A program made the translations under genes and the position numbers. DNA of 1,601 nucleotides from Escherichia coli (GTDB taxonomy: Bacteria > Pseudomonadota > Gammaproteobacteria > Enterobacterales > Enterobacteriaceae). Where the stretch lies: NCBI RefSeq assembly GCF_003334335.1, contig NZ_QOWQ01000101.1; one strand, 5' to 3'. How positions within the stretch are numbered: position 1 is the stretch's first letter; each line of letters opens with the position of its first letter. The notes beneath the pieces are model-generated. The model was not told the DNA's origin, searched no databases, and saw only the letters and a list, made by a program, of their open reading frames with translations. Of the stretch, positions 1 to 1,601 are shown piece after piece.

Positions 1-1601
1 GAACTGGCCTACGCTCTCTGGCCTGGTGATGTGGATGCCGGAAACATTGACGGCAGCATCCATCGCTGGGCAAAAAAAGAAGTTATCGACAACGACCGCG
101 AAGACTGGAAGCGTATCTCGGCATCAATGCGCAAACAGCCTGATGCCCTTCGCTACGACCGCCAGACTATTTTTGGCCTTGTCCGTGAACGTCCGATCGA
201 CATTCACAAAGACCCTGTGGCACTGAACAAATACATTACTGAATACCTGACTACAAAGGGCGTGTTTGAAGATGAAGGAACAAATCAGAGCGCAACTGAT
301 ACTCTCTCGTCGCCAGTACCAGAAACTGATGCAGTGGAAACGGCAATTCCAGACAACGAAAAAACCGAATGCAAAGTGGAAGTCGAACCATCTGTAGAAC
401 GTGAGGGGCCGTTCTACTTCCTCTTCACCGACAAGGATGGCGAAAAATACGGTCGCGCAAACAAACTTTCTGGTCTGGATAAGGCGCTGTCTGCTGGGGC
501 TACTGAAATCACGAAAGAAGAATATTTCGCCCGCAAAAACGGTACATACTCAGGTTCACAACAAAATACTGGTGCATCTGACACGACCGCACAACCAGGG
601 TCAGTAAAAGTTACCGCTGACGAAGTAAACAAAATTATGCAGGCAGCCAATATCAGCCAGCCTGACGCCGATGAACTGCTTGCAGTATCACGTGGTGAAT
701 TTGTTGAAGGGATTAGCGACCCGAATGATCCGAAATGGGTTAAGGGGAACCAGACCCGCGATTCTGTGAACCAGAACCAGCAAGAAACGGAACAGAACGA
801 CCAGAAAGCGGAACAAAACAGCCCAAATGCGTTACAAAACGAGCCAGAAACGAAACAGCCTGAATCAGTGGCGCAACAGGAAGTGGAAAAAGTCTGCACC
901 GCCTGCGGTCAGACCGGCGGCAACTGCCCTGATTGTGGCGCGGTAATGGGCGACGCAACATACCAGGAAACATTCGATGAAGAGTATCAGCCTGAAGTTC
1001 AGGAAGATGATCCGGAGGAAATGGAAGGCGCTGAACATCCACACAAGGAGAACACTGGCGGCAATCAGCATCACAATAGCGATAATGAAACTGGCGAGAC
1101 GGCAGATCACCCAATTAAGGTGAACGGTCATCACGAAATCACATCCACCAGCAGGACGTGTGACCATCTAATGATCGACCTTGAAACCATGGGAAAAAAT
1201 CCTGATGCCCCGATCATCTCAATAGGTGCAATATTTTTCGATCCGCAAACCGGAGATATGGGACCGGAATTTAGTAAGACTATCGATCTGGAAACTGCTG
1301 GCGGAGTCATTGATCGGGACACCATTAAATGGTGGCTTAAGCAATCACGCGAAGCGCAATCTGCCATTATGACCGATGAAATCCCGTTAGATGATGCACT
1401 GTTACAATTGCGGGAATTTATCGACGAAAACTCCGGTGAATTTTTTGTTCAGGTTTGGGGAAATGGAGCCAACTTCGACAACACGATTTTGCGCCGTTCA
1501 TACGAACGGCAGGGGATCCCCTGCCCGTGGCGTTACTACAACGATCGCGATGTACGCACAATCGTTGAGCTGGGGAAAGCCATAGACTTCGATGCCAGAA
1601 C
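1..1601 (+). CDS. recE: Internal fragment (partial at both ends) of a large prophage RecE-like exonuclease (exodeoxyribonuclease VIII family) carrying a zinc-ribbon linker and a DnaQ-like 3'-5' exonuclease domain
   Basis: Frame 1 is open across the entire window (533 codons, no stop), while every other frame is broken by stops. Translation reads ELAYALWPGDVDAG...[25 protein letters not shown]...CTACGQTGGNCPDCGAVMGDATYQETF...DPEEMEGAEHPH...MIDLETMGKNPDAPIISIGAIFFDP...WGNGANFDNTILRRSYERQGIPCPWRYYNDRD...AIDFDAR. The segment from codon ~224 to ~348 closely resembles the RecE (Rac prophage) linker region as I recall it ([24 protein letters not shown]...CNACGQTGG.NCPDCGAVMGDATYQETF...DPEEMEGAEHPH). 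Symbol given as recE-like; the domain after the linker differs from canonical K-12 RecE. Confidence 0.6.
895..936 (+). other. Four-cysteine zinc-ribbon-like motif (C-x2-C-x6-C-x2-C) in the linker of the CDS
   Basis: Codons 299-312 read C-T-A-C-G-Q-T-G-G-N-C-P-D-C, with Cys at codons 299, 302, 309 and 312. It is embedded in otherwise acidic, Q/N-rich low-complexity sequence, typical of a small metal-binding knuckle. Confidence 0.55.
1171..1601 (+). other. DnaQ-like (DEDD superfamily) 3'-5' exonuclease domain within the long CDS, continuing past the window end
   Basis: Exo I-like motif M-I-D-L-E-T-M-G (nt 1171-1194, acidic D393/E395 in window codon numbering). Exo II-like motif W-G-N-G-A-N-F-D-N-T-I-L (nt 1456-1491, D493). 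Candidate Exo III Y-x3-D in W-R-Y-Y-N-D-R-D (nt 1528-1551). Spacing and hydrophobic beta-strand context (PIISIGAIFFDP) fit the RNase T / DnaQ / Rv2179c-like fold. Confidence 0.7.

Follow-up and report, generated by a model that had tools for sequence, protein, structure and literature searches.

The function served by the N-terminal part of RecE, the exonuclease VIII of the Rac prophage, is described as unknown in two 2023 reviews, according to which full-length RecE, and not its nuclease domain alone, enhances linear-linear recombination (PMC11611040, PMC11610958); the nuclease domain tetramerises by itself (PMC11611040). A 2025 survey of lambdoid phages further described DnaQ-type nucleases near int, along with 'RecE-2' proteins that have no nuclease domain (PMC12315714). 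Here, we analyzed a 1,601-nucleotide (nt) stretch of Escherichia coli DNA (contig NZ_QOWQ01000101.1, hereafter the window), and in particular its nt 1-669, to which a first-pass annotation made from the sequence alone had assigned no function while remarking, in agreement with these reviews, that the N-termini of RecE-family proteins are poorly characterised. We consider it fairly probable that the product of nt 1-669 is the middle, non-catalytic part of a lambdoid-prophage exonuclease, in which two folded modules, termed domain B and mini-domain C, would act in interaction or targeting.

Frame +1 is stop-free across all 1601 nt and forms a single open reading frame (ORF) open at both window ends, while the other five frames carry 4-15 stops each within nt 1-669. 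The window is 99.8% identical (100% over nt 1-669) to an annotated coding sequence (CDS) of 2469 nt and 822 amino acids (aa) in E. coli JE86-ST05 (L001:5245-7713), named 'exonuclease' (WP_097518794.1) and located between ydfD and xis/int. The window covers residues 253-786 of this protein and nt 1-669 its residues 253-475; residue numbers below refer to it unless RecE is named. Of 5426 complete E. coli genomes, 3594 (66%) contain nt 1-600, with up to six copies per genome, and the gene also occurs in phage records, e.g., mEp460_ev081, HannyBb, and Tritos. Because of the near-identical annotated CDS, this wide occurrence, and strong purifying selection on the folded parts (see below), nt 1-669 are genuine coding sequence and not a product of chance. 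The exonuclease gene is among the commonest E. coli prophage genes, and the sequence itself is ordinary, already annotated, and unsurprising.

Judging from its domain matches, the protein's C-terminal part is a DEDDh 3'-5' exonuclease of the Rv2179c/T4-DexA-like type. PF16473 (Rv2179c-like) is the only significant Pfam domain in the protein (E = 6e-67; 3e-53 for the window alone), with an alignment that spans model positions 2-177 of 177, and the DEDDh motifs are visible by eye as DLE (644-646), NFD (743-745), and HNALDD (795-800). The only sequence relatives in the PDB are two 227-residue chains named 'Exodeoxyribonuclease', 8KEL (E = 2e-6) and 8KEN, and the DEDDh model of PADLOC matches the C-terminus as well (E = 2e-5), with no other PADLOC defence model matched. 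Membership of the RecE family, as implied by the first-pass annotation, did not survive this analysis. The window's 533 residues score 267.5 bits against the NCBIfam RecE model NF007259, whose curated cut-off is 1269 bits, and match only model positions 288-402 and 437-600; BLASTP against K-12 RecE aligns only residues 262-624, to RecE 278-591; and a phmmer search with the RecE PD-(D/E)XK nuclease (RecE 600-866) gave no match to the full protein, though it did match other family members. Since the PD-(D/E)XK domain is absent and the score lies far below the cut-off, with PF16473 forming the C-terminus instead, identification of the protein as a RecE exonuclease was rejected. No recT is present at the prophage locus (dicB, ydfD, exonuclease, xis, int).

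Residues 1-256 are 100% identical to YdfE, the product of a Qin-prophage pseudogene of K-12, and K-12 ydfE (L003:3079-3999), interrupted by IS2 (IS2E) at residue 256 of the present protein, is therefore an IS2-truncated orthologue of the exonuclease gene. The window starts three codons upstream of this truncation site (nt 1-12). Precomputed matches to the Pfam families YdfE_N (PF27430) and YdfE_C (PF27432) are restricted to fragments with residues upstream of ~153-190, and database fragments spanning residues 186-588 have zero Pfam matches. As these families map upstream of residue ~256, nt 1-669 correspond to the part that is missing from both K-12 YdfE and Pfam. A search of the literature on YdfE returned no functional account.

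We then resolved nt 1-669 into modules through an AlphaFold2 (AF2) model of residues 1-445 (mean predicted local distance difference test score, pLDDT, of 80) and through the occurrence of the modules in the relatives described below; the ratio of non-synonymous to synonymous substitution rates (dN/dS) of each module, estimated by codon comparison with the copy in phage HannyBb (one pair), agrees with this partition. The first-pass annotation had read the region as a single diverged version of the RecE N-terminus; this one-block reading was rejected in favor of two folded modules and two disordered linkers, followed by the beginning of a further segment, D (Table 1). Domain B begins 11 codons before the window, near residue 242, and its helices in the model comprise residues 247-257, 270-281, 286-296, 306-314, and 324-338. 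In mini-domain C, strands at 390-396, 399-405, and 420-422 are combined with helices at 408-416 and 424-431, and 21 diverse copies yield the consensus ER.GPFY…G.K.GRANK..L…L..G..EI[TS].EEY.ARKNGT, with R, G, P, F, Y, G, and E invariant and GRANK and EITxEEYxARK nearly so. Both modules are strongly constrained (dN/dS 0.06 for B and 0.04 for C, at dS 0.18-0.59), and both linkers evolve almost freely: dN/dS reaches 0.70 in linker L1 and 0.67 in linker L2, with amino-acid identities to HannyBb of 49% and 31%, respectively. L1 has a pLDDT of ~32 over residues 344-383, an isoelectric point of 4.05, and 12 D+E against 2 K+R. The match of segment D to DUF4072 (PF13284), over codons 212-239, is non-significant (E = 0.26-0.44, 28 of 46 model positions), and the DUF4072-like motif is common to segment D and K-12 RecE.

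Table 1 Features of the window and the positions they occupy in the 822-aa exonuclease.
Feature	Position (nt)	Residues	Strand	Description
Domain B	1-258	253-338 (last 86 of ~97)	+	Five-helix, all-helical; pLDDT ~90
Linker L1	259-393	339-383	+	Acidic, T/S/E-rich, predicted disordered
Mini-domain C	394-552	384-436	+	~50 residues; beta-hairpin, helix, short strand, helix; pLDDT ~90
Linker L2	553-600	437-452	+	S/T/Q-rich
Segment D	601-759	453-505	+	DUF4072-like; nearly identical in K-12 RecE (452-485 and beyond); nt 669 falls inside
CxxC…CxxC zinc-ribbon-like motif	892-939	550-565	+	VCTACGQTGGNCPDCG; read from sequence; aligned to RecE 517-533, common to K-12 RecE
Predicted C-terminal DEDDh 3'-5' exonuclease domain, start	1165-1601	641-786 of 641-812	+	Leaves the window at its end

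These patterns bear directly on whether the region could be a spacer with no function, or else what is left of a gene decaying in a cryptic prophage, a reading that we rejected as very improbable. The nearly neutral evolution of both linkers would fit such a scenario, as would the pseudogene status of the IS2-truncated K-12 orthologue and the existence of frameshifted copies, but the low dN/dS of B and C would not, nor would the conservation of both modules down to 25-45% identity across Enterobacterales, their confidently predicted folds, and the intact gene in HannyBb, an isolated phage. Overall, selection and conservation largely refute decay for B and C, and leave it plausible only for the exact sequences of the linkers.

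The relationship to K-12 RecE, which the first-pass annotation had described as at most a faint echo, is indeed faint in pairwise comparison, with ~25% identity between domain B and RecE over residues 262-340 (BLASTP), but this wording understates the homology visible at the profile level. Specifically, the NCBIfam RecE model aligns through its positions 288-402 to amino acids 9-123 of the window (E = 2e-13), K-12 RecE 258-352 is matched by a local profile of B (E = 4e-20), and an hhalign comparison of YdfE-type and RecE-type B returned a probability of 100% over 102 columns (E = 6e-41). A profile seeded on RecE 1-255 also matches residues 16-206 (E = 5e-26, in a small local set). On the strength of these alignments, the first 86 codons are a diverged homologue of RecE 258-352, and the whole N-terminal head is a diverged RecE N-terminus, so that the suggestion of a diverged RecE-type N-terminal region was sound for these parts. 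Mini-domain C, with its GPFYF motif, has no counterpart in K-12 RecE and sits in a gap of the RecE alignment. Further downstream, residues 480-624 are ~75% identical to RecE 460-591 (BLASTP), up to the point where the catalytic domains diverge.

Neither module could be linked to a characterised fold, and the absence of any assignable motif in codons 1-223, as initially reported, was confirmed: Pfam-A returned nothing in these codons besides the non-significant DUF4072 match (E = 0.26), and Pfam, PDB, and PADLOC searches gave no clear match to a well-characterised domain family. The motifs quoted in the first-pass annotation all lie where it had placed them, with ALNKYITEYLTTKGV at codons 74-88 (nt 220-264) in the last helix of domain B, GPFYFLFTDKDGEKYG at codons 136-151 (nt 406-453) in mini-domain C, and the T/S/Q-rich tract TYSGSQQNTGASDTTAQPGS at codons 182-201 (nt 544-603). 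Scanning every alignment member against Pfam yielded 0 of 53 matches for B and 0 of 21 for C at E <= 0.001; profiles of B, C, and the whole head against all PDB sequences reached a best E of 0.26; no PADLOC defence model matched B or C; and neither a coiled coil nor any fold known for oligomerisation was seen. The one hint comes from sub-threshold matches to SHOCT (PF09851) in the second half of C: 5 of 21 members give one at E <= 0.1, the best having E = 0.024, and 0 of 21 at E <= 0.001. SHOCT is described as a pair of short helices in which a Gly and a Glu are conserved, and its function is unknown (PMC3581485).

To characterize the distribution of these modules, we searched 1.84 billion representative proteins with residues 1-475 using HMMER, which recovered only 187 relatives. 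Domain B is present in essentially every family member, and the 57 B-bearing representatives with a length of 500 aa or more end in a DEDD exonuclease, a RecE nuclease, a Rad52-like domain, or another C-terminus; mini-domain C is found with all three of the named types. Homologue searches with the region or with the C profile yielded only fragments of up to ~390 aa, too short to reveal other domain contexts, and tblastn of module C against phage genomes returned 17 records, all of them close relatives. In a Foldseek search against AFDB50, all 50 listed matches were from Enterobacterales and mostly annotated as exonuclease or exodeoxyribonuclease VIII, and these 50 added no functional annotation. 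Every protein in which mini-domain C was seen also matches the A2 profile; since this association is not significant (Fisher p = 0.054) and the iterated A2 and RecE-N profiles overlap, we draw no conclusion from it. The three scaffold-borne enzyme types occupy the same position in lambdoid early-left operons. As for a context of recombination modules, a RecT-like gene follows a RecE-nuclease variant (P0128), and a Rad52-like variant (P0127) is flanked by Gam-like and Mu-Gam-like genes.

Nucleotide matches place module shuffling at the linkers. The match is confined to nt 1-549 or 1-567 in many E. coli copies and to nt 470-600 in one, and four phages match only nt 603-669 (98.5% identity). Because these matches stop sharply at ~nt 549-567 or start at nt 603 or 470, recombination joints cluster in or near the linkers, notably in or next to L2. 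Separately, the family includes several rearranged members. In P0123 and P0248, the sub-domain equivalent to residues 104-206 (the helical YdfE_C region) is duplicated in tandem, and P0122 (527 aa) is a deletion variant in which L1 is joined straight to the middle of the DEDD domain; since it has lost C and D together with the zinc ribbon and the first DxE motif of the catalytic domain, this protein is probably inactive. A second short conserved motif, PEVK[SN]LG.G.FS[IV][ED]GL.G, occurs downstream of C in the linkers of many relatives (P0234, P0175, P0150, P0133, P0134, P0224) and may, by resemblance, be a variant of the same short linear motif as the core of the DUF4072-like segment.

The same head-plus-linker scaffold precedes DNA-end enzymes of three kinds, namely the RecE 5'-3' nuclease, a 3'-5' exonuclease of the DEDD type, and a Rad52-like annealase, from which we infer for B and C a role in interaction or targeting. 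In the architecture we propose, a RecE-type head (YdfE_N, YdfE_C, and domain B) would be joined to the DEDDh exonuclease by a strongly acidic tether of ~300 residues bearing small modules (C, the DUF4072-like segment, and the zinc ribbon). B and C would lie outside any active site and keep the catalytic domain, on its flexible tether, at the place where it acts, for instance a partner protein or a DNA end. Several points weigh against this interpretation. The evidence for a targeting scaffold comes down to domain architecture and gene context; the dN/dS values derive from a single pairwise comparison; and the predicted template modelling score (pTM) of the AF2 model is 0.33, such that the model is uninformative on contacts between modules. 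In addition, no annealase or Gam gene lies alongside the exonuclease in the present prophage, and a recombination role of the DEDD variant is therefore assumed.

A bolder version, which we put forward tentatively and as rather doubtful, is that domain B, with help from C in some of the proteins, serves as a dedicated adaptor and docks the flexibly tethered DNA-end enzyme onto one common partner, which might be a replication or recombination protein of the host or the DNA ends of the phage itself. If so, the long-unexplained N-terminus of RecE could be assigned a specific molecular function, and C would count as a new mini-domain for partner binding. It is also conceivable, if unlikely, that B and/or C bind nucleic acid, as a helix-turn-helix-like bundle and a SHOCT-like helix pair, and would thereby anchor the exonuclease directly on DNA ends instead of on a partner protein. 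Self-association of B and/or C, which would bring multiple tethered catalytic domains together and in this way also two DNA ends, appears quite unlikely. It would account for the preference of full-length RecE for linear-linear (end-to-end) recombination (PMC11611040, PMC11610958), and B is the sole module common to all family members; yet neither module has a detectable coiled coil or oligomerisation fold, the RecE nuclease domain is already tetrameric alone (PMC11611040), and initial experiments by the authors who described SHOCT did not support its oligomerisation (PMC3581485). Beyond the choice between these mechanisms, the region is of practical relevance: the N-terminal part shared with RecE is what makes full-length RecE useful in direct cloning by linear-linear recombination, and two constrained modules separated by two free linkers offer precise constructs for probing the role of the RecE N-terminus.

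The prophage carrying the gene is inserted beside ompW, with the order cro/cI-like regulators, ydfB, ydfC, dicB, ydfD, exonuclease, xis, and int. Within the window, a 161-aa ORF runs on the minus strand (nt 414-899), and a terminator-like hairpin on the plus strand (nt 394-417, GTAGAACGTGAGGGGCCGTTCTAC followed by a T-rich tail) falls in coding sequence at the start of module C. Both could in principle suggest that the feature of interest is, instead of the protein, a gene that overlaps it, an RNA with a regulatory role, or a promoter or terminator on one of the strands, which we hold to be exceedingly improbable. However, the coding frame opposite the minus-strand ORF is strongly conserved, and the hairpin is probably meaningless, being the one terminator-like site where 2.4 are expected by chance; scans of the window revealed no promoter-like sites and no inverted repeats, and the only Rfam match is a snoRNA at chance level (E = 0.81). 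Module C also contains a run of five A (nt 443-447, GGC GAA AAA TAC), at which many database copies shift frame to …GENTVAQTNFLVWIR…, the product of deleting one A, which corresponds to the window ORF 401-607; one record of an Stx2a phage annotates its own copy as frameshifted, through a 4-bp deletion. Disrupted copies or homopolymer sequencing errors are therefore frequent, and the window copy is intact.

Compared with described systems, the present protein shares most with RecE. Both have a beads-on-a-string layout, both are encoded in an early-left operon near xis/int, and both possess the DUF4072-like motif, the zinc ribbon, and the acidic tail (present residues 480-624). Unlike RecE, with its PD-(D/E)XK 5'-3' nuclease and adjacent recT, the present protein and locus have neither; mini-domain C is inserted, and the catalytic polarity is predicted to be opposite, i.e., 3'-5'. 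The similarity to YdfE (PF27430/PF27432) is complete over the shared N-terminal residues, and nt 1-669 lie beyond these families. For the catalytic part, the match to Rv2179c-like/T4 DexA-type exonucleases (PF16473) is end to end, with the DxE, D, and Hx4D motifs visible, whereas stand-alone PF16473 members such as the 227-aa protein of PDB 8KEL come without a RecE-like scaffold. The second half of C resembles SHOCT in pattern (L..L…G..EIT.EEY.ARK), but C has an extra N-terminal beta-hairpin (GPFYF…GRANK) and is internal rather than C-terminal. Finally, like the 'DnaQ-like nucleases' reported near int in lambdoid phages (PMC12315714), the present gene stands beside int.
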